Shown: piece after piece, positions 12,192-24,412 of the stretch
How positions within the stretch are numbered: position 1 is the first letter of the stretch
How the letters are laid out: each line of letters opens with the position of its first letter
Source: Nitrosopumilus sp.
GTDB taxonomy: Archaea; Thermoproteota; Nitrososphaeria; Nitrososphaerales; Nitrosopumilaceae
Length of the DNA: 64,000 bases
Assembly (NCBI GenBank): GCA_965249555.1
Contig: OZ252243.1
Location: 1,952,001-2,016,000, forward strand
Direction: 5' to 3'
Made by a program: the position numbers and the translations under genes
Notes under the pieces: model-generated
Told to the model about the DNA's origin: nothing
Databases searched by the model: none
What the model saw: only the letters and a program-made list of their open reading frames with translations

Positions 12192-13537
12192 TTTGTTGCC
12201 TCCTTTAATGCTTGGAGCATTGCGCCTGCTTTGTGTTCCGTTTCTTTGAATTCGTATTCTGCAATGGAATCTGAAACAATTCCTGCTCCTGATTGAACAA
12301 ACCCTTTGTTCCCATCAATGAATATGCTTCTAATTGCTATTGCAAAATCACAGCATCCATTAAATGAGAAATATCCAACAGCTCCTGCATACGGACCCCT
12401 TGCTTCAGTTTCTAATTCATCAATTATTTGCATTGCCCTGACTTTGGGTGCGCCAGATACTGTCCCTGCTGGAAATACTGCCTTGAATGCATCAAACATG
12501 TCATTTTCAGGCGCCAAACTACCTACTACGTGTGTAACTATATGTTGAACATGACTAAACTGCTTTATCTGCATTAGAGATTCTGGGTGAACTGTTCCAT
12601 ACTTGCATACTCGACCTATGTCGTTTCGTCCCAAATCAACTAACATTGTGTGCTCTGCTAATTCTTTTTCATCATGCAGTAATTCGTCAGCTAACTGTTT
12701 GTTCTTTTCATCATCATCTGTTATTTTCCTGGTTCCGGCAATTGGGAAAGTCTCTACTTTGTCATCAGTAATTCTAACTAACATTTCAGGAGATGCACCA
12801 ATGATTGTTTTGGGGCCTTGTTTTAGATGATACATGTAAGGTGATGGATTTAGCTTGCGTAATGTTTTATATAATGTTAGATTATCGCCCTTATTTTCAA
12901 ATGCAAATTTCCTAGATAAAACAACTTGGAAAATATCTCCATCGTGGATTAATTTTTTTGCCTTGTTTACAATATCTGAAAATTTTTCCTCATTCATGTT
13001 TGGTATTACTTCTGATGAATGAAAATCTCCAAATGTATCATCGCCTATCTTTAGCTTATCAAATCTATTTTCATCATGATAAAAGTAGAATAGTTTTTTG
13101 TATAAATTATCATATAATATTCCATCATCATAAATTCCAAACTCCATTAGTGGTTGTGGTGAATTGTGAGTATCAGGGATTTGCTCAACTAGTCTTATTG
13201 CATCATAGTTCACTACTCCTACTGCTCCTCCTAAATATCGATAACTTTGATCATCTGATTTTCCTAAGAGTTTTTTTAATTCTCCAAATGGGTCTGTAGT
13301 TTGTACGGTTTCAGTATCTCCACCTCTGAGAATCTCAACCTTATCTGAATACCCTTTGAGAATTATTTTTGGATCAAATCCCATTACTGACGTTTCTGCT
13401 AGTACTTCAGGACCAGTTAATGATTCAAAGAGAAATGAATGTGAATAGTTTCTTGAAATTTTATTGTAAATTTGAAATTGGTTTTCAGATAAATCTAGGG
13501 GTATTACTTTTGCTTGAGAGTTTCCAAATGTGTTCAC
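12188..13537 (-). CDS. trpE: Anthranilate synthase component I
   Basis: NPSPYMY, PIAGTR, EHTMLVDLGRND, GTVSGAPK. Confidence 0.96.
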   Translation of the reverse strand: MNTFGNSQAKVIPLDLSENQFQIYNKISRNYSHSFLFESLTGPEVLAETSVMGFDPKIILKGYSDKVEILRGGDTETVQTTDPFGELKKLLGKSDDQSYRYLGGAVGVVNYDAIRLVEQIPDTHNSPQPLMEFGIYDDGILYDNLYKKLFYFYHDENRFDKLKIGDDTFGDFHSSEVIPNMNEEKFSDIVNKAKKLIHDGDIFQVVLSRKFAFENKGDNLTLYKTLRKLNPSPYMYHLKQGPKTIIGASPEMLVRITDDKVETFPIAGTRKITDDDEKNKQLADELLHDEKELAEHTMLVDLGRNDIGRVCKYGTVHPESLMQIKQFSHVQHIVTHVVGSLAPENDMFDAFKAVFPAGTVSGAPKVRAMQIIDELETEARGPYAGAVGYFSFNGCCDFAIAIRSIFIDGNKGFVQSGAGIVSDSIAEYEFKETEHKAGAMLQALKEATK

Positions 13538-13688
13538 CCATAGACAAAATTTTAGTGGTTTATTATTTAAATTGAATAGTAGGTTTTACTGACACTGATT
13601 TTGTCTAAAATGATTGATTTTGTAGGCGTGTAACAATTACGGTATAGTACGGTACCTTTATATCATATTTGATCGTAGTGCAATTACC

Positions 13689-13877
13689 ATGCAAGGAGTA
13701 AATCAGGCAATTATTCAAGATATGCAGATTCTCAGAAAATCACAGTATACTACATCTGTCTCTAAAGTTGAATGCTATGTTTGTGGCAAGGGATTAGAAG
13801 ATGGCCATAGTATAACTGCCAAGACATTGCCTCATGGAATAGTGTTATTTTGCGATGTTCATTATTCATTACAATAA
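13689..13877 (+). CDS. Small zinc-finger protein (CxxC...CxxH)
   Basis: CYVC...FCDVH; TATA-like TTTATA about 30 nt upstream of the ATG. Confidence 0.7.
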   Translation: MQGVNQAIIQDMQILRKSQYTTSVSKVECYVCGKGLEDGHSITAKTLPHGIVLFCDVHYSLQ

Positions 13878-13921
13878 TTGACCATAAACGCGATTATGTA
13901 CTAGTTCATACTATCTAGAGT

Positions 13922-14520
13922 ATGGGTATTCAAAGGAGTTTACTAATTTTTCAAAATTCATTAAAATCAAAAAATTCTGTAAAAACTCACACATATCTTT
14001 TACAAAACTTTATGAAATTTTACAAAATATCTGATTACAATTCTGTAGTTAACATCGAAAAAAAAACTTCAAACAATGATTGAAGATTATGTAATGGAAT
14101 TAAAAGATAAAATATTCCCAAATTCAATTTCAACTTACGCTAATCCGATTAAGACTTGGAATCAAATGATATTGATCTTAATTGGATGAAAATCAAAAGA
14201 CCATAACCCTGTTATGGTAAAGCGTTCTGGTTCTTCTGCATATTCTACTGAAGATGTAAAGAAAATGCTAGATGTTACAACAAAAATTCGAAACAAAGCA
14301 ATCATTCACTTTATGGCTTTCACTGGTTTTTGAATTGTGGCATTGCCTGATTTACAACTAAGACACATTAGAGATATGCCATTAGGCTGTAAAATGATTA
14401 CAGTTTATGAGGATTCAATAGAAGAGTATCAGACTTTTTTAACTCCTGAAGCAAGTAGTGTTTTAGATAATTACTTTGATCAAAGAAGAAAGAGTAATGA
14501 GAATCTGACAGACAAAGACA
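13922..14520 (+). pseudogene. Degraded tyrosine recombinase/integrase (thaumarchaeal type)
   Basis: Pieces read FQNSLKSKNSVKTHTY, MIEDYVMELK, AYSTEDVKKMLD..IRNKAIIHFMAFTGF*IVALPDL, VYEDSIEEYQTFLTPEA. Frameshifts, in-frame stops (one at the position of the catalytic Arg) and no C-terminal HxxR/Y part. Confidence 0.8.
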
Positions 14521-14637
14521 AGGGTAAAGAACTTTTTTCTTTAACATCCAGAGGTTTGGTAGAATATGAAAAAATAAAAGAAAAATTCAATCTTTAAGTC
14601 AGTTTGTTGAAATCTTTTTTAGAATAATTGTATTTTA

Positions 14638-15174
14638 TTGGCATTAAACATTACAATCATTATCCAACTAGCAACACAACCGTTAATATTTTCATTATTA
14701 CAATCTAATGAGTTGAGAAGACGTGTTTTCAAATTAGAAGAACCGTTTAGAGAAATTATGGAGAAAGACATAGCCAAGAAATTCACTAGTGAATTATTCA
14801 CTGCATGTGGAGCAACTCTAGAATCACTATTTAAGTACGACAACAAAGACAACACACATGTTTGGGTTTATGATGCCAATGATGAAATTTTAGCTGTATT
14901 AGTTTTTGAAGATTTAGGAAAAGAATTTCATATAGTTGGCGTGTCTAATAATTTTGCAATAAATGAAACTATTTTAGATGATGCAAAACCAGGCGGTTCA
15001 TTGTATCTGGTTATGGAAAATTTTGCCATCGATATGGGTGTGAAAAAAATATTTCTGGAGTCAATTGAGATTAGAACTGACTATTGGAAAATAATGGGAT
15101 TTAATTCAACAGGTGATCCAAAGGATGGAAAATTTTGCAAATTATTCCCTATGGCGAAGGAACTTAAGCAATGA
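14638..15174 (+). CDS. Putative GNAT-fold acetyltransferase (true start probably downstream)
   Basis: PGGSLY...AIDMGVKKIFLES...YWKIMGF resembles GNAT motifs A/B. Confidence 0.55.
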   Translation: MALNITIIIQLATQPLIFSLLQSNELRRRVFKLEEPFREIMEKDIAKKFTSELFTACGATLESLFKYDNKDNTHVWVYDANDEILAVLVFEDLGKEFHIVGVSNNFAINETILDDAKPGGSLYLVMENFAIDMGVKKIFLESIEIRTDYWKIMGFNSTGDPKDGKFCKLFPMAKELKQ

Positions 15175-15373
15175 TTTCTTTTTTTGTCTCAGGAGTATAA
15201 TCTGGCATTGGTTCCATAGAATGGATTTGTTTTAAAACAATTTGAATCTCTGGATCATTTCTAAGAGTGTTTTCAAGAAGTTGTGATTTACTTTGTTTTA
15301 ATTTAGTAGCCAAAATTCCAATTGCACTAACTAAATCTCCATTGAATGTGTATGATTTTGCGATTTTTGTCAT
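15164..15373 (-). CDS. Small ribbon-helix-helix-like DNA-binding protein
   Basis: Probable start MTKIAKSYTFNGDLVSAIGILATKLKQSKSQLLENTL has a beta-helix-SKS-helix pattern. Confidence 0.5.
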   Translation of the reverse strand: MTKIAKSYTFNGDLVSAIGILATKLKQSKSQLLENTLRNDPEIQIVLKQIHSMEPMPDYTPETKKEIIA

Positions 15374-15607
15374 ACTATTATATGATATATATCGCATAAA
15401 TATACTACTGTTAGGCATAAATGTAAAAATTTCTGTTTTTATATAACAAATAATTTCATGCATGAAAAACCAAATAAATCGATTAGTAGAAACCCAAAAG
15501 ACTATTTGCTTCAATTTCAACAATAATCAATTTCAAAATAATCGCGAATTATTGATACAATTGGTACTGTTAACTTTAGATTTTCCTCCATTGCATCATT
15601 ATCGTTT

Positions 15608-15832
15608 TTGAGTTGTTTTTGTAATGGCACTAAGTGGAGATTTGAAATGGATGAACATCAAAGATCTATTACAGATTCTTTAGATAAACCAAAATCAAAA
15701 TGGTTATCAATGTCATCAAAGTATGTTGGAACTTGTGTGCAATGCAATGGGGTAATTAATCAAGGTGAATCAATCTTATGGAATAAAGAGAAAGGTGCTA
15801 AACATGAGGACTTGTCCTATACTTTTCACTGA
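15608..15832 (+). CDS. Small zinc-finger-like protein
   Basis: SKYVGTCVQC...GESILW...AKH. Confidence 0.55.
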   Translation: MSCFCNGTKWRFEMDEHQRSITDSLDKPKSKWLSMSSKYVGTCVQCNGVINQGESILWNKEKGAKHEDLSYTFH

Positions 15833-15959
15833 AAGCTCCAAAACAATAATGTTATTTTTTTAATAAGTTAAATTCCTAAAAGGTTAGAATAATATCTGGA
15901 TTCTAAACAATAACAACTTGATAGTGAACCTTATAGATCATTAATACTGAAAAAATTAC

Positions 15960-16175
15960 ATGGTAGATCATGTTCATGTTTGGAGAAAAAAATTGAGACT
16001 GCGAGAACTTATGGATATTACAAATCAAGAATTAGAATCAGGCAAAAAAATTACTGTAATTAATGAAATATTAGATATACAAATGCAAAAACGATGGAAC
16101 TTGGTTAGTACTAGAAAACAACACCTTGATGATATAAAGAAAATATTGGCAAATCAATATGTTTTAGTGATTTAA
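15960..16175 (+). CDS. Hypothetical protein
   Basis: 71-aa ORF with ATG and plausible composition. Confidence 0.55.
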   Translation: MVDHVHVWRKKLRLRELMDITNQELESGKKITVINEILDIQMQKRWNLVSTRKQHLDDIKKILANQYVLVI

Positions 16176-16205
16176 AATTTTAATTTCTGGTATCTAAATA
16201 AATTC

Positions 16206-16303
16206 AAAAGATTGAAGTTTTTGGGTTTGTCCTTTACTCTGTCTTGCCATATGCATCGACATGTAACACGACAATAGGATGTTGTGGAATCTTCAATCTT
16301 CGT
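16206..16303 (-). ncRNA. Candidate ~100-nt structured RNA (RNA-A, copy 1)
   Basis: 10-bp closing stem AAGATTGAAG/CTTCAATCTT, internal bubble, irregular apical hairpin; conserved TTTATCA box upstream on the minus strand. Confidence 0.6.
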
Positions 16304-16436
16304 TAATTATATGTTATATTAAATGATAAACTAGATCAACAAAATTATGTATATTTGTACATATTTAACATAAATTATAAACAAATATTAGACTTGTATG
16401 ATATATACTTAAATTTCATTTCTACGTATTTGATAT

Positions 16437-16609
16437 AACGAGGATCTATCAAACTGCTAAGAAAATCCATCAGAATTTGAAGGATTCTAATGGAAAACTT
16501 TGAAGAAGCAGAAAGATAGGGAAAAAGGAATACACAAAAAAAGATGGAAGCATCTAAAATTCAAAAGTGTATTCCAATTAATCCTCGTTTCCTAATTCGA
16601 TATTTTTTT
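16437..16609 (+). ncRNA. Candidate ~170-nt multi-stem RNA (RNA-B, copy 1)
   Basis: P1 AACGAGGA/TCCTCGTT, CTATC/GATAG, CTGCT/AGCAG, GGAATACAC/GTGTATTCC, AGATG-GAAG-CATCT; CTTAAAT 29 nt upstream; T-tract at end. Confidence 0.7.
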
Positions 16610-16943
16610 ACAAATTTGCAACAAATTGATAAATTATGACAGAACCTATCACTATTCCAACAATTGCACCAATAATCATCCCAATCTTTTTGAGTTTTTC
16701 TCTTTTTTCAAATTCAATATTGGCTTTTCTTTTTATTTCTGAGTGATGTTTCTTACAACGGAATTTGCCTTCATATTCCTGAAATCCTTTTCCCCCACAT
16801 TCTTCACATCTTCTTTCATTCGTGGTGGTTTTTTTGAGTTTTTCTTTTTTTACTACCGGTTCTAAATCTATGATCGCCTTTTCTTCATTTAGCATCTTTT
16901 CAGCTTTGTCTTCTGCAGTTCTTTTTTTTGGCTCATCTGTCAT
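16608..16943 (-). CDS. Membrane-anchored zinc-finger protein
   Basis: CEEC...CKKH plus C-terminal hydrophobic helix. Confidence 0.75.
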   Translation of the reverse strand: MTDEPKKRTAEDKAEKMLNEEKAIIDLEPVVKKEKLKKTTTNERRCEECGGKGFQEYEGKFRCKKHHSEIKRKANIEFEKREKLKKIGMIIGAIVGIVIGSVIIYQFVANL

Positions 16944-17241
16944 TAAATCAACCTTGATAGAACTTTTAGTGATTTAAAAATTTTAAAAATCTAAAACTAT
17001 GAAAAGAGTAGTAATCTTTAACTGGAATTTATGATATTTTTTACTAAATGAACAAGACTGAGAAAAATATATCAAATGAGATTATGAAAGAGCATTCCAG
17101 ATTATTAAACGATTTAGATTCTGAAAAAAACTCTCCAATTATACTAGAAACAAAGAATTCGAGTAAAAAATATCCATAACTGTTGGATTTTAATTTGGAT
17201 AATTTATGCTAGATTATCTTGATAATTCTTTCTTAATCTAA

Positions 17242-17508
17242 TCAAGCCATCTGAGCCGGAGCCTGTCCATCATATCCCTGTTTTTTGTGTATAGAGTCAA
17301 TTACTGACCTTGTAAATCTATCAAAGTCTTCATTTTTCATAGAATCAATGACTTCATCTACCGTTTTATTCATGTCAATTTCCTTGCATCTGCGGTCTGC
17401 CTCAGAACAATAAAACTCGATATAACTTTGAATATAATCATATTCTGGTCCTTGAATTCCTATTTCCAACCTTCTTCTACTTAATCTCTCTCTCCAGGTT
17501 TCACTCAT
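17242..17508 (-). CDS. Hypothetical protein
   Basis: 88-aa ORF with ATG and protein-like composition. Confidence 0.7.
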   Translation of the reverse strand: MSETWRERLSRRRLEIGIQGPEYDYIQSYIEFYCSEADRRCKEIDMNKTVDEVIDSMKNEDFDRFTRSVIDSIHKKQGYDGQAPAQMA

Positions 17509-17560
17509 TGAATCACCATTGATACTACTTTATCGCATTTAAAGAAAATTATTTTTTATT

Positions 17561-18226
17561 TTACTTTATAACCTCATAGAACTGATTGAGACGTTGAGTC
17601 AGTAAATCCTTGTAATCTTCCGTTCTTTTTATGAATTCCATTCTTGTATTTTTCTCACTGCTTACTAGAATTACAACTTGTTTTACTTCAATTCCTGTTA
17701 ATTCTTTGAACATTTCTGAATATGCGGCACCTTGAATAAAATGATCAGTCATCCATTCTTCTTGCTGATTACTTCGTTTTGTTTTATAGTCTATTATTGA
17801 TAATTCTCCATTGTATTTGGCAATACAATCAGACATTCCTGCCAGTTTCATTTTTTTGCTATACAGTCTTAATTCAATTCCATGAATGTCATTGATTTTT
17901 TGTAAAAATGGAATTAGATTATTAAAATGAGCAACTGACAATAGTCTGACCTCGTCAGTTTGTGTTATTTCATTTAGGTGATTTTCAATTAATTTATGAG
18001 TTTGAGTACCTATTATTGAAGATTCTTCTGTAATATATTGAGCAGCTATCTCCTGCTCTTTCCAATTTTGTAGGCTTTGTTGTTTTTCAGCAGACATTGT
18101 TTTGTGTAGTATTGTTGTAATTGATGGAAAAATATCCCCATCTGGTGTTTGATAGTAATGTGCATCATCTTTTTCAATTAATTCTGCTTGTTGAAAATTA
18201 ATTGGAATGTGATTAAACATGTGCAT
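17561..18226 (-). CDS. PD-(D/E)XK exonuclease (MGME1/phage exonuclease-like)
   Basis: PSITTIL, GTQTH, LAGMSDCIA...IIDYKT, Q..AY. Confidence 0.85.
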   Translation of the reverse strand: MHMFNHIPINFQQAELIEKDDAHYYQTPDGDIFPSITTILHKTMSAEKQQSLQNWKEQEIAAQYITEESSIIGTQTHKLIENHLNEITQTDEVRLLSVAHFNNLIPFLQKINDIHGIELRLYSKKMKLAGMSDCIAKYNGELSIIDYKTKRSNQQEEWMTDHFIQGAAYSEMFKELTGIEVKQVVILVSSEKNTRMEFIKRTEDYKDLLTQRLNQFYEVIK

Positions 18227-18299
18227 CTTGTAAATTTGTTATTTCAGTGTAATTTTAAACTCTTTATTTCTAATTTGTTAAAATTCAAGTATTCCGATC

Positions 18300-19514
18300 T
18301 TAATTTTCTTTGAATCTAGCAGCTTCATCAGAGCCACCAGTTGCATTACCTTTGCTGTAGGAATGCGCTCCAACTCCTGCCAAACTTCCACCCTTTACAA
18401 TTAGATATTCATCCCGTATTGGTTTGTCATCAAGCCAACACTCCAAAATCTCCCTAACCCCTGATGCATATCTTGTCTGAGCAGAAAGTGATGTTCCAGA
18501 AGTGTGAGGAGTCATGCCATGATTTGGCATTGTTCTCCACGGATGATCCTTTGGTGGGGGTTGTGGAAACCAAACATCCCCTGCATATCCTGCTAATTGT
18601 CCTGTCTCTAGTGCTTTTGTCACAGCATTTCTGTCACAAATTTTCCCACGAGCAGTATTTACTAAATATGCCCCATGTTTCATCTTGCTAATCAATTCTT
18701 CATCAAATAGATTTTCAGTCTCTGGATGAAGCGGTGCATTAATTGTAATTACATCACATACCTTTACCATCTCCTCTACACTTTGGTGAAATGTCAATCC
18801 AAGTTCTTTCTCAGTTTCTTCAGGTAATCTATGTTTATCAAAATAATGAAGCTTGACATCAAATGGTTTCATTCTCTTTAGTACGGCCAATCCTATTCTT
18901 CCCGCAGCTACTGTTCCAACATTCATTCCCTCTACATCGTATGACCTTGATACACAATCCGCAATGTTCCATCCATTTTTGATTACCCAGTTGTATGATG
19001 GGATGTAGTTTCTTACCAATCCTAGGATCATCATTACAACATGTTCTGATACACTGATGCTATTGGAATACGTTACCTCCGTTACTGTAATGTCATTATC
19101 CATCGCTGCTTGCAAGTCTACATGGTCAGATCCAATTCCTGCTGTGATTACCATCTTTAGCTTTGGTGCCTTTGCAATTCTTTGAGCAGTAAGATAAGCT
19201 GGCCAGAAAGGCTGTGATATTGCAATGTCTGTATCTACTAACTCTTTTTCAAATACCGAATTTGGTCCGTCTTTGTCAGATGTTACAACATAAGTGTGTC
19301 CCCGCTCTTCTAAGAATTTTCGTAATCCCAGTTCTCCTGAAACACATCCTAAAAGTTCTCCTGGGTTAAAATCAATTTTTTCTGGAGTAGGTGTACTTTG
19401 GCCACCAGGATAACTTGTGATCTTTGGAATATCTGTTCTTGCATAATTTGGTGGGAACTTGTCTTCTGGGTCATCATATAATACACATAATATCTTTAGA
19501 TTTTCTTTACTCAT
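18300..19514 (-). CDS. fdh: NAD-dependent (metal-independent) formate dehydrogenase
   Basis: LCVLYDDP, SQPFWPAYLT, TAGIGSDHVDL, AAGRIG, GDVWFPQPPPKDHPWR, AQTRYASG, GAHSYSKG; closely matches the Pseudomonas sp. 101-type FDH as recalled. Confidence 0.95.
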   Translation of the reverse strand: MSKENLKILCVLYDDPEDKFPPNYARTDIPKITSYPGGQSTPTPEKIDFNPGELLGCVSGELGLRKFLEERGHTYVVTSDKDGPNSVFEKELVDTDIAISQPFWPAYLTAQRIAKAPKLKMVITAGIGSDHVDLQAAMDNDITVTEVTYSNSISVSEHVVMMILGLVRNYIPSYNWVIKNGWNIADCVSRSYDVEGMNVGTVAAGRIGLAVLKRMKPFDVKLHYFDKHRLPEETEKELGLTFHQSVEEMVKVCDVITINAPLHPETENLFDEELISKMKHGAYLVNTARGKICDRNAVTKALETGQLAGYAGDVWFPQPPPKDHPWRTMPNHGMTPHTSGTSLSAQTRYASGVREILECWLDDKPIRDEYLIVKGGSLAGVGAHSYSKGNATGGSDEAARFKEN

Positions 19515-19639
19515 TTCTCTAGACTTGATGAAATCCTAAACCTGTAAATTAACTTGATCCTCCTAATGAAAAGTTGATTTAGCATATTTTGTATGCCAGA
19601 TTTTTTGTTTTCCAACATGCTTAAGTTCATTTTTTTCTA

Positions 19640-19843
19640 ATGGCATGCATGGATAATCCAACTGAAATCAACTCTGTATATTGGAACGAAAAAAAAAAAT
19701 CATGGGCACACAAGCTGATTCAAGTTGAAGAATATCACGGATTTGAGGAATGTCAGCAATGTCGTAGACCCATGTCCCATAATATCAAAACAGATGGAGA
19801 ATTCAAAGTCGTCTATGTGGAATGTGGATGCTCAAGGCGATAA
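19640..19843 (+). CDS. Small Cys-containing (zinc-ribbon-like) protein
   Basis: CQQC and ECGC motifs; CTTAAG TATA-like box upstream. Confidence 0.7.
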   Translation: MACMDNPTEINSVYWNEKKKSWAHKLIQVEEYHGFEECQQCRRPMSHNIKTDGEFKVVYVECGCSRR

Positions 19844-19983
19844 TCCAATTTCAAGAAATAATGGTGATTCATTAGAGACAGGCATACATTCGGCTGCAAA
19901 GCTTTATGCCAAATTACACCCCACAGAAGAAAATGCAAAAATAAGAACGAATGAATTTAAAATGAAATTGGTAGAATAGAGTC

Positions 19984-20223
19984 ATGTTTTACCCTTTTTC
20001 TCTTGTTAAAGTAGTATTGAAAAATATAGGGTTTGAAATAAAAGAAGATGATGACGGTGTACTGTCATTTATTCACAAAACTACAAACCAAGAAGTGTTA
20101 ATAGGCATAGACAAGGAATTAGGATCAAATTATCTAAGAAATAAAATGCAAGAAATTAATTTACCTTTTGATTATTTTCATCATCTTACAGAGACCGTCA
20201 AAAAAATAAGTGATAATAAATAA
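19984..20223 (+). CDS. Possible HicA-like small protein
   Basis: Pattern LVKVVLKNIGF...F.H......IG..KELG..YLR..M.EI.L resembles the HicA fold; catalytic GSH not evident. Confidence 0.4.
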   Translation: MFYPFSLVKVVLKNIGFEIKEDDDGVLSFIHKTTNQEVLIGIDKELGSNYLRNKMQEINLPFDYFHHLTETVKKISDNK

Positions 20224-20227
20224 AATC

Positions 20228-20542
20228 TCAATCCTTTTCAAATCCTTTACTAACAAAGCCATTTGTTACATGCAAAAATGAGCCTAATCTCATGGCAGCC
20301 TCTTTAGAAGACAGTCTTTTAATGCGATCTTCAAGTTCCTGAATAGTCATTTCTCCTATTAGTTTGGTTTTATCCTCATCATCTCTATGATGAATATCCT
20401 CTAAGATGGTTACTAACTGAGAACGACAAATGTTCATGAGATGTCTCATCAAGATTAAACATAGGTCAGGTACCCCATCTTTAGCAGGTCTTTTAATAAC
20501 AAAATCACCACACAGATGGCAATTTGTTTTAAAATCACTCAT
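20228..20542 (-). CDS. Hypothetical protein with CxxC motif
   Basis: CHLC near the N-terminus. Confidence 0.6.
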   Translation of the reverse strand: MSDFKTNCHLCGDFVIKRPAKDGVPDLCLILMRHLMNICRSQLVTILEDIHHRDDEDKTKLIGEMTIQELEDRIKRLSSKEAAMRLGSFLHVTNGFVSKGFEKD

Positions 20543-20664
20543 GGTGATAATATTATAACCTCATCTGAAAATATGATCTACTTCTAGTCAAAGGGTGGTT
20601 TACTAGTATATCAATTAAAAAATTTCCAACAAGCTTAAATCTTCATGCTCATTCTTGAATTTAA

Positions 20665-21219
20665 ATGGGATTAGACGTTTTTGATGCTATCGCATTAACT
20701 ATTCATGCAAACAACGACGAAATCGTAAGTAAAACAACAATACAGAAATTAATTTACTTTCATACGGTTACAATCAAGAATTTAGACATTTCAAACTATA
20801 CTCATTATTTCTATGGCCCATTTAATCGAGAAGTATCAGCTGCATTAGAAGACATGTCTGAATTTTCATATATTGATCAAAATATTATTTCAGGATACTA
20901 TGAAACTTACAATTACAGGTTAACATATAACGGAATCAAATATGCTGAAACCGCAATGGAGAAATATTCTGATGAATTCAAAACAATTTCTAAAACTATC
21001 GAGATATGTAAAGAATACTGCGAACTAAAACCAACACCACTATCATATGCAGCAAAGGCACACTATATTTTAGCAAACTCAAAAGATCAATTTAAAGACA
21101 AATATTTAGCAGAAGATGTAAAAATAATTGCAAAAGATTTTGATTGGAATATTTCCACAGAAGATGCATTAACTGGACTCGCACTACTTCAAAACCTCAA
21201 CCTTGTCTCTACCTCATAG
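20665..21219 (+). CDS. SocA/Panacea/YwgA-like protein
   Basis: SKTTIQKLIYF and YTHYFYGPF motifs. Confidence 0.75.
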   Translation: MGLDVFDAIALTIHANNDEIVSKTTIQKLIYFHTVTIKNLDISNYTHYFYGPFNREVSAALEDMSEFSYIDQNIISGYYETYNYRLTYNGIKYAETAMEKYSDEFKTISKTIEICKEYCELKPTPLSYAAKAHYILANSKDQFKDKYLAEDVKIIAKDFDWNISTEDALTGLALLQNLNLVSTS

Positions 21220-21376
21220 TTATTTTAGGTCCAAAGCAATCAGAGATCCGCTTTATGGATTCATTGATCTTTCTGAATTAGAAACTAAAGTAATAGATAC
21301 TGAAATTTTTAGAAGGCTGCAGTTTATCAAACAACTTAAAAGACTGAAATCTTCAACAAATCTCCCAAAAGATTGA
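21203..21376 (+). pseudogene. N-terminal fragment of an HD-domain phosphohydrolase (YwfO/SAMHD1-like)
   Basis: Manual translation: MSLPHSYFRSKAIRDPLYGFIDLSELETKVIDTEIFRRLQFIKQL, then similarity is lost near 21337. Confidence 0.8.
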
Positions 21377-21471
21377 TGGGTTTTAGAATCATTTACAATA
21401 ATTCCAATGTTAACAGGCTCGTTTCTTACTGGGTCTGGAATAAATCTTGCAACAACAAAACTATACGTCAT
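21253..21471 (-). pseudogene. Truncated DUF3037-like protein
   Basis: YSFVVARFIPDPVRNEPVNIGII N-terminal signature; the remainder is antisense to the HD fragment. Confidence 0.7.
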
Positions 21472-21550
21472 ATCTGTTACCTTTGATTACCGCCAAGTGG
21501 TAAATGGTCTCACAATTCTGCAAATTCATCAAAACTTTCATAGAAATTTA

Positions 21551-21649
21551 GAAGAGTGAATCTTTTGGAATTGTCCTTTACTCTGTCTTGCTGTATGCAT
21601 AGACATGTAACACGACAATAGGATGTGTGGTGCTAACTTCAATCTTCAT
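21551..21649 (-). ncRNA. Candidate structured RNA-A, copy 2
   Basis: GAAGA.TGAA/TTCA.TCTTC closing stem; apical hairpin TTGTC..TTAC..TGTC...GACA.GTAA...GACAA conserved. Confidence 0.55.
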
Positions 21650-21651
21650 TG

Positions 21652-21722
21652 ATTTTATGTTAAATTGAATGATAAACTAGATCAATCATATTATTTACAT
21701 TTGTAGTAATTTAACATAAAAT
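21652..21722. promoter_or_regulatory. Perfect 15-bp inverted repeat in the divergent promoter region
   Basis: ATTTTATGTTAAATT (21652-21666) / AATTTAACATAAAAT (21708-21722); degenerate equivalent in copy 1. Confidence 0.5.
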
Positions 21723-21784
21723 TATAAACAAATATTAGGATTATTTCAAGAAATACTTAAATCTAATTTCAGCATATATACACT

Positions 21785-21933
21785 GACGAGGAACTATCAG
21801 ACCTGTCGAAATTCAAAGAGAAAACTTTGAGGAGGTAGATAGATAGAAAAAAAGGAAAACACGAAAAAAGATGGAAGCATCTAAAATTCTAACATGTTTT
21901 CCAGTAACCTCGTTTCCTAATTCGTTATTTTTT
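21785..21933 (+). ncRNA. Candidate structured RNA-B, copy 2
   Basis: GACGAGG/CCTCGTT, CTATC/GATAG, ACCT/AGGT, GGAAAACA/TGTTTTCC, AGATG-GAAG-CATCT; CTTAAAT 29 nt upstream. Confidence 0.7.
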
Positions 21934-22402
21934 GACAAACTTATATGAATATATTATAATCATAAATTTTTGTTTAAAGTATCCAATACATTTAATTTCT
22001 TTTCATGCGTATGCTATTCTACACATGTACAAATCAGTGAATCTTCTCGAATACAAATTATATCATAGAAAATGTGATTTATTATTACAAGAAACAGAAA
22101 TTAGATTTGCAGGATTCTTAGACACTATGGGTAATCTCATCGCTGGAGGATTCAGAGAAGGTGTAACACCACTTAATGATGAATCAGAAAGGATCAAACT
22201 TCATATGGAAACTCTTCTACGAGTAAAAACAGAACAAGACTTTGATTATGACTTGGGAACTGTCGAGTACTCTGTTTCACAAAGGAAAAAAGTTATCACA
22301 TTTACTTTTGCATTTGATAGTAAGGTACTATTTGTATCAACAGAAACAAATGTTGAAATCGAAAAGACTGCTCAAAAAATAATAAAAATTTGTAGTATTT
22401 GA
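21932..22402 (+). CDS. DUF6659-like (roadblock/profilin-like) protein; real start probably near 22025
   Basis: EIRFAGFLDTMGNLIAGGFREGVTPL...FDYDLGTVEYSVSQRKKV. Confidence 0.75.
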   Translation: MTNLYEYIIIINFCLKYPIHLISFHAYAILHMYKSVNLLEYKLYHRKCDLLLQETEIRFAGFLDTMGNLIAGGFREGVTPLNDESERIKLHMETLLRVKTEQDFDYDLGTVEYSVSQRKKVITFTFAFDSKVLFVSTETNVEIEKTAQKIIKICSI

Positions 22403-22426
22403 TTTAAAGTTGATAAATATTTTATT

Positions 22427-22832
22427 CTAGTCTCCACATACTTTTCCAAATTTTTCATAAAATTGTTTTACATCTTCAATGTTATCTAAGACTTGGTTGA
22501 TATTTGTATCTGGAAATCTATTATCAAACCATTCTTTGTATTTTAAATCATTAGCATACATGTCATTATAATATTGACCTCCTTTACTACTATTATAGAC
22601 ACATAATGTGAAATCATCTATCTGTCTTAACTCTGGATTTGCACTCTCAATTTGCTCAATTGCCTGATTTACTTCATCAAGTTTATTTTGTATTTCTGAT
22701 AAAGTATCTGGCAGAGACTGTTTCATCATCAATATCTGAAACCATTTTTTCCATAGATGCTAAAGTCATTATTGTTCCTGTTGCAATAATTACGATCACA
22801 GCAATGATTACAATAATTATGATCGGTTTCAC
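22427..22832 (-). pseudogene. Frameshifted secreted/membrane-anchored protein
   Basis: A GTG-start hydrophobic leader (MKPIIIIVIIAVIVIIATG...) is one frame off from the 22427-22732 ORF (...YKEWFDNRFPD...). Confidence 0.5.
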
Positions 22833-23111
22833 ATGTTTTCTACATTAACCTAAGAATTAAGAATTACAAGATATTCGTGCTTCATAATTCGGCAAACTCA
22901 TCATAAATAAGAGGAATCAGAGAGAACACCTTGGTATAATCATCAGCATATCTGCTGGAATTCTCAAATTATAAAACGCTTTGAAAAAAATAAAATCATG
23001 CTCTATTTGATCGCAATTAATCTAGGCACAAATTACAAAAATTTCTTTAAGTAGAGTGTAATTATTTTTCATTCTGATTTTTTATCTCGAGTACAATTCT
23101 AACCATTTCAT

Positions 23112-23215
23112 CGAGTCAGGAGTACCTCGCGGTGTTATCTGGAAGGGCCCAATGCTCACATAAACTAGTTAATGCGTAACAGAGCCTCCAAACTAAGGAG
23201 ACTGACTTTTTTTTA
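23112..23215 (+). ncRNA. Candidate ~100-nt structured RNA
   Basis: GC-rich island; AGTCAG/CTGACT closing stem then T8; CTCC/GGAG hairpin; TTTTTTATC box about 30 nt upstream. Confidence 0.5.
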
Positions 23216-23284
23216 GATCAAAAATTATTGTTAGGGTAATCTTTGTTCTAGGTTTATTTGTCTCCTATAAAGTAACTACTATTA

Positions 23285-24412
23285 GTGAACGTGAAGATTA
23301 TCGTAATTGCATTATCTGTAGTAATGCTGGGAACATTTGTTTTCCCTACTTTTGCACAGCAGTTCAAAGAACCAAATTATGATATACGTGGGGGAACCAT
23401 TTTGGGCTTTGAGATCGATTCTGAATCCACATCGCTAATAATCGCACTTGATGCTAGAGCCCGTGGAGAATTAATCATAACACTGCCTCGGAATTTAATT
23501 GATGCAAGAACTGGTTCTGAGGATATTAATTTTGAAATCTTTGTTAGTGGTTTGAAACTTAGTTCATATGATGAAGAAATAACATCTTTTGATAGAACAG
23601 TTACAATTCCATTCAAACGATCAAACAATGAATTAATAATAACTGGAACAAAAATTTTCAACCAAGTATCAACTACTCCAATTACTAAACCACAACAAAT
23701 AGAGCAAATAATAGAATCTGAATTAAGAAAAGAAATTCCTGAAGGTAATGCAAAACTCTTGATATTCTCTGATACCCAATGGTCTGGTGCAATGGAATCA
23801 TCGAGTTTTGAATATGCCGAAATAGCTGGTCAAGGTGATAAGAGTGTCATTTTTGGGTGTGAATCCTCCTTTGGTCGTCAGGGAGTTTTTGGTGCAAAAA
23901 TTGAAAAATTAACACAAGATGGTTATGTGCGACTTGTTGTAATACAGAATCAAGAAATATTATCTCAGGGAACAACTGTGGCAGAATTTGGTGATGTACT
24001 AATCAATGGTAATTGTTTTTCAAGTTTTAGTGCTGCTCCTGGTGGAGGATGTTTAATTGCAACTGCAACATATGGTACAGAACTAGCACCACAAGTACAA
24101 CAACTACGAGAACTTAGAGATAATCAGTTACTCCAAACAGAATTAGGAACATCCTTTACAGAATCATTTAACGAATTTTACTATTCTTTTTCACCAATTA
24201 TAGCAGACTATGAACGTGAAAATCCTGTTTTCAAAGAAATGGTCAGACTAGCAATTACCCCCTTGATTTCATCACTATCAATTTTGAATTATGTTGATAT
24301 GGATTCAGAAGAATCAGTGCTAGGTTATGGAATTTCATTGATTCTACTAAATATTGGAATGTATGTTGGAATTCCAGCTGTAGTGATTGTTGGGATTAGA
24401 AAAAGATTCTAA
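23285..24412 (+). CDS. Secreted CFI-box-CTERM domain protein
   Basis: Signal peptide; GGGCLIATATYGTELAPQVQQLRELRD; C-terminal TM helix plus basic tail. Confidence 0.9.
   Translation: MNVKIIVIALSVVMLGTFVFPTFAQQFKEPNYDIRGGTILGFEIDSESTSLIIALDARARGELIITLPRNLIDARTGSEDINFEIFVSGLKLSSYDEEITSFDRTVTIPFKRSNNELIITGTKIFNQVSTTPITKPQQIEQIIESELRKEIPEGNAKLLIFSDTQWSGAMESSSFEYAEIAGQGDKSVIFGCESSFGRQGVFGAKIEKLTQDGYVRLVVIQNQEILSQGTTVAEFGDVLINGNCFSSFSAAPGGGCLIATATYGTELAPQVQQLRELRDNQLLQTELGTSFTESFNEFYYSFSPIIADYERENPVFKEMVRLAITPLISSLSILNYVDMDSEESVLGYGISLILLNIGMYVGIPAVVIVGIRKRF

Follow-up and report, generated by a model that had tools for sequence, protein, structure and literature searches.

The window analysed here is the whole 64,000-nt stretch of AT-rich DNA from a Nitrosopumilus genome (G000, contig 1, 1952001-2016000 of a single 2.23-Mb contig), and it carries a predicted small RNA gene, RNA-B, in duplicate. 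Both copies lie in an island of small ORFs downstream of trpD/G/E, separated by genes for a PD-(D/E)XK nuclease and a 2-hydroxyacid dehydrogenase. Copy 1 occupies 16437-16609 and copy 2, which was first located via a hairpin common to both copies (21869-21882), spans ~21785-21933; the two are ~84% identical. In fact, the duplicated unit exceeds RNA-B: 16200-16612 resembles 21544-21935 in three blocks of 82-88% identity, which contain, in order, the block of a second RNA (RNA-A), an AT-rich spacer, RNA-B and a T-run. A blastn search of copy 1 against its own genome returned copy 2 as the sole other copy (E 3.5e-32), the next match having an E value of 0.096. The features, in window coordinates, are:

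16203-16307, minus strand: RNA-A copy 1, a match to model R3
16376-16393, plus strand: upstream promoter element of the TAAAYRAATWTTARGA type, conserved in all genomic contexts and in the other two genera
16409-16414, plus strand: TATA box TTAAAT of copy 1, about 23 nt upstream of the first P1 base
16437-16609, plus strand: RNA-B copy 1 (MFE fold, z -4.5)
16437-16445 / 16581-16589, plus strand: P1 of copy 1
16446-16450 / 16515-16519, plus strand: P2a of copy 1
16454-16458 / 16507-16511, plus strand: P2b of copy 1
16466-16494, plus strand: extra arm-2 hairpin of copy 1, lineage-specific, found elsewhere only in the copies of genomes G007 and G083
16527-16535 / 16567-16575, plus strand: arm 3 of copy 1
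16542-16555, plus strand: apical hairpin of copy 1
16590-16599, plus strand: tail of copy 1, with a T7 run at 16603-16609
21547-21653, minus strand: RNA-A copy 2, an R3 match also seen in the alignment
21757-21762, plus strand: TATA box of copy 2, ~28 nt upstream
21785-21933, plus strand: RNA-B copy 2, the standard-length form (MFE fold)
21785-21791 / 21908-21914, plus strand: P1 of copy 2
21854-21862 / 21895-21902, plus strand: arm 3 of copy 2
21869-21882, plus strand: hairpin of copy 2
21915-21924, plus strand: tail of copy 2, with a T6 run at 21928-21933

Both copies fold better than chance would suggest: none of 200 shuffles folds as well as copy 1, and 2 of 200 equal copy 2 (z -2.7). Covariance models match copy 1 at 16435-16604 with 73.8 bits (R1) or 86.6 bits (R2) and copy 2 at 21783-21929 with 137.7 bits (R1). 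A T-A to A-T swap in arm 3, called by an earlier sequence-only reading, is indeed present, GGAATACAC (16527-16535)/GTGTATTCC (16567-16575) in copy 1 becoming GGAAAACAC (21854-21862)/TGTTTTCC (21895-21902) in copy 2; across the family this pair is A-U in 57 sequences, G-C in 7, G-U in 2 and U-A in 1. The change of the first P1 pair from A-U (copy 1) to G-U (copy 2), also claimed then, can be read directly off the sequence, and family-wide the pair is G-U in 52 sequences and A-U in 14. The same holds for the change of length in the distal part of arm 2, where the additional hairpin makes copy 1 longer than copy 2 by ~21 nt. The proposed replacement of CTGCT/AGCAG (16454-16458/16507-16511) by ACCT/AGGT, on the other hand, does not stand: the two are not homologous in the family alignment, where the counterpart in copy 2 is CTGTC/GGTAG with 5/6 pairs formed. 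Similarly, the elements described as invariant (the AGATG-GAAG-CATCT hairpin, the tail TCCTAATTCG and GAAAACTTTGA) are the same in both copies but not invariant across the family. In fact, the stem of the apical hairpin covaries, its closing pair being G-C in 36 sequences and A-U in 21.

Comparison of homologues shows, with strong support, that RNA-B folds as a three-way junction. P1 (ACGAGG/CCUCGU) is the nearly invariant terminal stem that closes the junction, whose strands measure 1-3, 6-8 and ~6 nt. Arm 2 consists of P2a (CUAUC/GAUAG), P2b and P2c, and its length ranges from a ~20-nt hairpin in two other genera, which retain P1 and arm 3 with arm 2 reduced in this way, to ~90 nt in copy 1. 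An A-rich strand connects it to the conserved arm 3, which proceeds from GGAAAAC/GUUUUCC through CGAA/UUCG and an all-A internal loop to a 5-bp stem with a GAAG cap. The molecule ends, 3' of P1, in an unpaired tail of 12-16 nt that is 60-80% conserved. P1 and junction positions are the same in at least 90% of sequences although paired, and conservation extends to the internal loops of arm 3.

This fold is maintained by covariation. In a model-based alignment of 77 matches (68 distinct sequences), standard pairs occupy 95.6% of cells, compared with 41.8-49.5% once the 3' strands have been shifted by 1-3 columns. Compensatory changes on both sides occur in 26/40 pairs and in all seven helices, and shuffles give 11.4 +/- 1.7, with 0/500 reaching 26. 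Because the model-based alignment is fitted to the structure, we repeated the count on a plain, structure-blind MAFFT alignment of 63 sequences (out of 75-plus matches). On these 63 sequences RNAalifold recovered no more than part of arm 2 because the 5' strand of P1 is misaligned there, and the structure was therefore projected from one member; 92.0% of cells are then paired versus 39-48% when slid, and 20/41 pairs are compensatory, a value that 0/500 shuffles match. On 10 MAFFT-aligned homologues RNAalifold, which the earlier reading had named as a check, gives a 40-pair consensus with compensatory changes in 9/40. A mutual-information scan ranks the nested helices at the top and finds no convincing covariation for a pseudoknot or extra tertiary pairing. 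Docking of the tail was considered, given its complementarity to the 3' strand of P2a and the linker in many sequences, and was set aside for lack of mutual-information support.

G-U pairing is common; at three pairs it is seen in 52, 48 and 43 sequences. Because the opposite strand would have mismatches at these places, and because the promoter is conserved, RNA-B is assigned to the plus strand. In 62 of 78 loci TTAAAT keeps one and the same spacing from RNA-B, 74/78 have a TATA-like hexamer 24-31 nt upstream, and a T-run of at least four T marks the 3' end in 65/78. Judging from these conserved signals, transcription would start at or beside the G/A that opens GACGAGG, ~23-25 nt past the TATA box, and the transcript would end in the U-rich tail. 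The upstream element at 16376-16393 is a putative regulator site. No reading frame is conserved among the RNA-B homologues, whose longest ATG-initiated ORFs have a median length of 25 aa and do not keep to one frame. A 31-aa frame of copy 1 that begins in the hairpin was rejected as a small protein, its ATG being gone wherever the stem pair is A-U.

Could the conserved stretch not be an RNA at all, but work at the DNA level, as a promoter array or a repeat bound by protein, or else encode a small protein? We consider this exceedingly improbable, because pairing is kept by compensatory changes, because the G-U pairs correspond to A-C mismatches on the other strand, which are meaningless in duplex DNA, and because a conserved frame is absent. 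Covariation among 68 distinct homologues, a fixed-distance promoter, strand-specific G-U pairs and the missing frame lend strong support to the original proposal of a functional folded RNA. We are thus highly confident that RNA-B is a genuine structured RNA gene, and its signals predict an independently transcribed non-coding small RNA of ~140-170 bases.

How widespread is this RNA? By blastn, relatives were found in 10 of 24 other Nitrosopumilus genomes. Covariance model R1, with matches accepted at E up to 0.001, detects RNA-B in 63/151 Nitrosopumilus genomes (46/98 of the high-quality ones) and does not find it in the other 88. Within the Nitrosopumilaceae sample, 3 of 27 genera carry it: Nitrosopumilus, g33 (7/9 genomes) and g38 (8/9 genomes, one of them with as many as 4 copies). 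The broader model R2 found RNA-B in 0/127 genomes belonging to 19 further families within the order, and did not find it in five complete Nitrosopumilus genomes either (best E 0.16), 4/5 of which keep a uracil-DNA glycosylase gene directly followed by other genes. Because these five complete genomes are negative, the neighbours of RNA-B change from lineage to lineage and either window copy is absent from a sister strain, RNA-B is an accessory gene, gained and lost among strains. A pattern scan of genome contigs gave 94 stretches; among the 80 listed, 11 are thaumarchaeal and the model confirmed 11/11, whereas the rest of those listed, from bacteria and elsewhere, were regarded as chance matches. 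In viral collections, two 17-mer matches were unconfirmed by the model and phage blastn returned none. On these comparisons RNA-B constitutes a new RNA family restricted to Nitrosopumilaceae, and both window copies show its defining traits: P1 ACGAGG/CCUCGU, the arm 3 CGAA/UUCG, the GAAG-capped stem and a TATA box ~28 nt upstream. We found no description of RNA-B in the literature that we searched.

Known RNA classes were sought with the 4227 models of Rfam 15, at gathering thresholds and then at E up to 10. The whole window has 0 matches at gathering thresholds, and at E up to 10 the region 16100-16700 yields 5 chance-level matches, the best being a Plasmodium RNase_P hit on the opposite strand (25.7 bits versus a threshold of 100). 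RNase P RNA and SRP RNA were rejected, as both score above threshold elsewhere in the genome (RF00373, 187.6 bits; RF01857, 101.8 bits), and so were tRNA and tmRNA, ARAGORN reporting 0 genes in 13000-24000. Box C/D RNAs carry C and D boxes near their ends, H/ACA RNAs a pocket hairpin with an ACA box on its 3' side, and a kink-turn or kink-loop goes with them. By eye, RNA-B has no D box near its 3' end and no conserved ACA past arm 3, its Rfam snoRNA matches are noise only, and no kink-turn or other recognised protein-binding motif could be fitted. A scan for sigma-70 promoters and hairpin terminators is uninformative in an archaeon. A transposon guide RNA (omega/reRNA) or MITE would sit at the end of a transposon or beside tnpB or iscB, with terminal repeats and a 3' guide drawn from the adjoining DNA; this was discarded because no tnpB or iscB adjoins RNA-B and the tail is conserved whatever the flank.

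A ligand-sensing RNA (an orphan trans aptamer) or a small self-cleaving ribozyme built on the three-way junction would fit the invariant junction nucleotides, the A-rich loops suited to tertiary docking and the variable peripheral arm. Between its three helices, the hammerhead has conserved core strands of 7 nt and 3 nt, plus a single nucleotide where cleavage occurs; the junction strands of RNA-B differ from this core in length and sequence (by eye, against the consensus), and there is no Rfam hammerhead match. Nor does any Rfam riboswitch or ribozyme family match, even at E up to 10. A cis-regulatory riboswitch, which would keep its place in the 5' leaders of functionally related genes, was rejected because the downstream genes differ in identity and strand (66 + 14 loci) and RNA-B ends in a T-run. 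With no consistent downstream gene or expression platform and no extra tertiary pairing in the mutual-information scan, we regard a ligand-sensing or self-cleaving function as distinctly improbable.

The genomic neighbourhood of RNA-B is variable. Its neighbour genes vary in identity and orientation in at least six genomic contexts (66 + 14 loci), in line with transcription independent of them, and no protein gene is consistently beside it. In 33/66 loci, a gene for a family-4-like uracil-DNA glycosylase stands upstream of RNA-B in the same orientation, preceded by a nitroreductase gene in 20 loci; downstream, DUF72 is found in 20 loci and a sorbosone-dehydrogenase-like gene in 22. The loci of the other genera and the remaining loci have unrelated neighbours. 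The glycosylase was rejected as a partner, being present without RNA-B in 4/5 negative genomes; a glycosylase query against G000 found nothing at E up to 1e-10. A DUF6659 gene adjoins RNA-B in 10/66 loci, copy 2 included (21932-22402, plus strand), and was ruled out as a partner because it has many paralogues and occurs in genomes without RNA-B. This family (PF20364) is strongly expanded, with 8 copies in G000, 5-16 in five relatives without RNA-B and 0 in 14 control genomes. At copy 1, a converging gene (16608-16943, minus strand) encodes a protein of 111 aa that combines a Cys-rich ribbon with a membrane helix at the C-terminus; it belongs to no Pfam family and is conserved beside the copy-1 type in G007, G071 and G083. 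At four loci (L139, L141, L150, L188), a conserved non-coding GC-containing hairpin with a T-run lies between RNA-B and DUF72, ~70 nt before the DUF72 start, and may represent a terminator or an additional small RNA.

In the window, the small-ORF island behind the trp genes (13875-22869) is strain-variable. The sister genome G007 is without 19843-22869, which contains copy 2, and G071 is without 13875-16603, which contains copy 1, with a break at the 3' end of RNA-B. G007 is also without 18283-19608, and in G071 19863-21468 is replaced. The two window copies fall in different sub-lineages of the RNA-B family, and for this reason one of them was probably acquired. Such a picture invites the idea of a mobile or island module, in which the RNA-A/RNA-B unit spreads horizontally and serves an element, for example by helping to maintain it, by offering an integration target or by taking part in defence. 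The patchy presence, the number of genomic contexts, the strain-specific indel around each window copy and the separate sub-lineages of the copies would all agree with it. Yet we found no integrase, transposase or terminal repeats beside RNA-B, the viral collections gave no confirmed matches and half of the loci (33/66) occupy a stable chromosomal neighbourhood behind the glycosylase gene, so that a module serving its own spread seems improbable.

The upstream block of the duplicated unit, RNA-A, is itself a structured RNA, with a predicted direction of transcription divergent from that of RNA-B. It is ~105 nt long, has an 8-bp covarying outer stem and no Rfam match. Its alifold energy is -14.7 kcal/mol on the minus strand versus -1.4 on the plus strand, and 8/23 pairs are compensatory, the outer stem included. 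A small protein on the minus strand was rejected, since its frames are broken in relatives by 1-nt deletions and early stops. RNA-A stands head to head with RNA-B, ~130 nt apart, in 35/66 loci, and model R3 finds it in 44/151 Nitrosopumilus genomes, 37 of them with RNA-B and 7 without. In one clade a DUF6659 gene takes the place of RNA-A opposite the same spacer. In G144 (L234, 2116-2200) the spacer that normally precedes RNA-B is joined directly to the start codon of DUF72, whose first codons have the sequence seen in the spacer; because the spacer runs straight into the start, RNA-B was presumably deleted there, and the event looks like a deletion via a short repeat. RNA-A reaches 6 copies in G084. 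At L134 and L178, an RNA-A paralogue whose outer stem differs is located on the plus strand ~110-230 nt downstream of RNA-B, just before DUF72, which is why the RNA-A family may also serve as a 5' leader element.

What could RNA-B do? To explain its pattern of conservation, we propose that it acts in trans as a compact structured RNA bound by a protein, which would recognise P1, the junction and the A-rich arm 3, with arm 2 as a dispensable spacer. RNA-B would then be the subunit of an RNP or a decoy for a regulator and, often head to head with RNA-A, would share with it a conserved regulatory spacer. The proposal follows from conservation that peaks in P1, the junction and the arm 3 loops, from covarying helices and from the dispensability of arm 2, which together suggest an RNA recognised as a three-dimensional object, with a protein as the simplest candidate. 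The protein- or ligand-binding core suggested at the outset fits this pattern, in which P1 and the junction are invariant, the A-rich loops conserved and arm 2 apparently dispensable. The analysis brought out no partner protein or ligand. Since RNA-B was not found in 88 of 151 genomes, the five complete ones among them, any partner must be either general or equally accessory. This is the reading that we tentatively favour, and we would place it just short of an even chance.

The moderately conserved single-stranded tail would suit a base-pairing RNA too. RNA-B could be a regulatory sRNA whose folded body stabilises it and whose tail (of the UUUCCUAUUUCG type) or junction strands pair with mRNAs or with RNA-A. 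The gene stands alone and has a promoter and a terminator of its own, the unpaired 12-16 nt tail keeps its 60-80% conservation, paralogues, as many as 4 in one genome, are what regulatory sRNA families typically show, and a similar motif (UCCUAUUGUCG) can be read from the RNA-A alignments. These arguments are countered by the location of the highest conservation, which is in P1, the junction and arm 3 rather than in the tail; by the divergence of the tail in several lineages (L158, L021, L172, L185); and by a U to A change of the tail in both window copies with no matching change in RNA-A. No target was identified, and a 7-nt AT-rich seed is uninformative. A base-pairing role is somewhat unlikely on this balance. 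A bolder reading joins RNA-B and RNA-A in a new two-RNA system of marine ammonia-oxidising archaea, be it a new catalytic or ligand-sensing class or the core of an undescribed archaeal RNP, that would be switched on by a dedicated regulator via the conserved spacer and exchanged between strains as a unit; we think this quite unlikely.

Nitrosopumilaceae rank among the most abundant marine microbes and have a key part in nitrogen cycling. To our knowledge, few archaea-specific structured non-coding RNAs are known, and our literature search found none described in these ammonia oxidisers. For RNA-B, a well-supported fold is now in hand, together with a promoter, a covariance model and a clear presence/absence pattern over cultured and uncultured strains. 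With fold, promoter and model, RNA-B can be searched for in existing marine metatranscriptomes and probed in vitro, and because strains with and without it exist, their comparison could reveal a trait that it controls.

Several known systems offer points of comparison. RNA-B shares its size class with 5S rRNA (RF00001), as well as a terminal helix, a three-way junction and two arms with internal loops; unlike 5S rRNA, it has a 12-16 nt 3' tail, is accessory, with no copy in about half of the genus, and is not matched by RF00001 at E up to 10 (16100-16700). With TPP and purine riboswitches and the hammerhead it has in common a three-way junction, conserved junction nucleotides and a variable peripheral arm, but it differs from them in having no Rfam match, no regulated downstream gene and junction strands that are not those of a hammerhead. 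In Methanosarcina, Haloferax and Sulfolobus, stand-alone intergenic small RNAs have their own BRE/TATA promoter and an oligo-U end. RNA-B resembles such archaeal RNAs as a lineage-restricted gene of its own, 100-200 nt long, with a promoter ~25 nt upstream and a U-rich end, whereas most of them are not known to have a multi-helix fold with as much covariation. Tan1 is described in PMC5069720 as an abundant 229-nt structured non-coding RNA of marine group II archaea with expression evidence and a structure proposed from a handful of homologues. Both are orphan structured RNAs of marine planktonic archaea, yet they differ in phylum and size, and RNA-B is predicted from DNA. Finally, RNA-B can be set beside Pyrobac-1 (RF01722). 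The two are unrelated in sequence, RNA-B being AT-rich rather than GC-rich, accessory and sometimes multi-copy; nevertheless, both are orphan structured archaeal RNAs with a promoter of their own and a range restricted to a genus or family.
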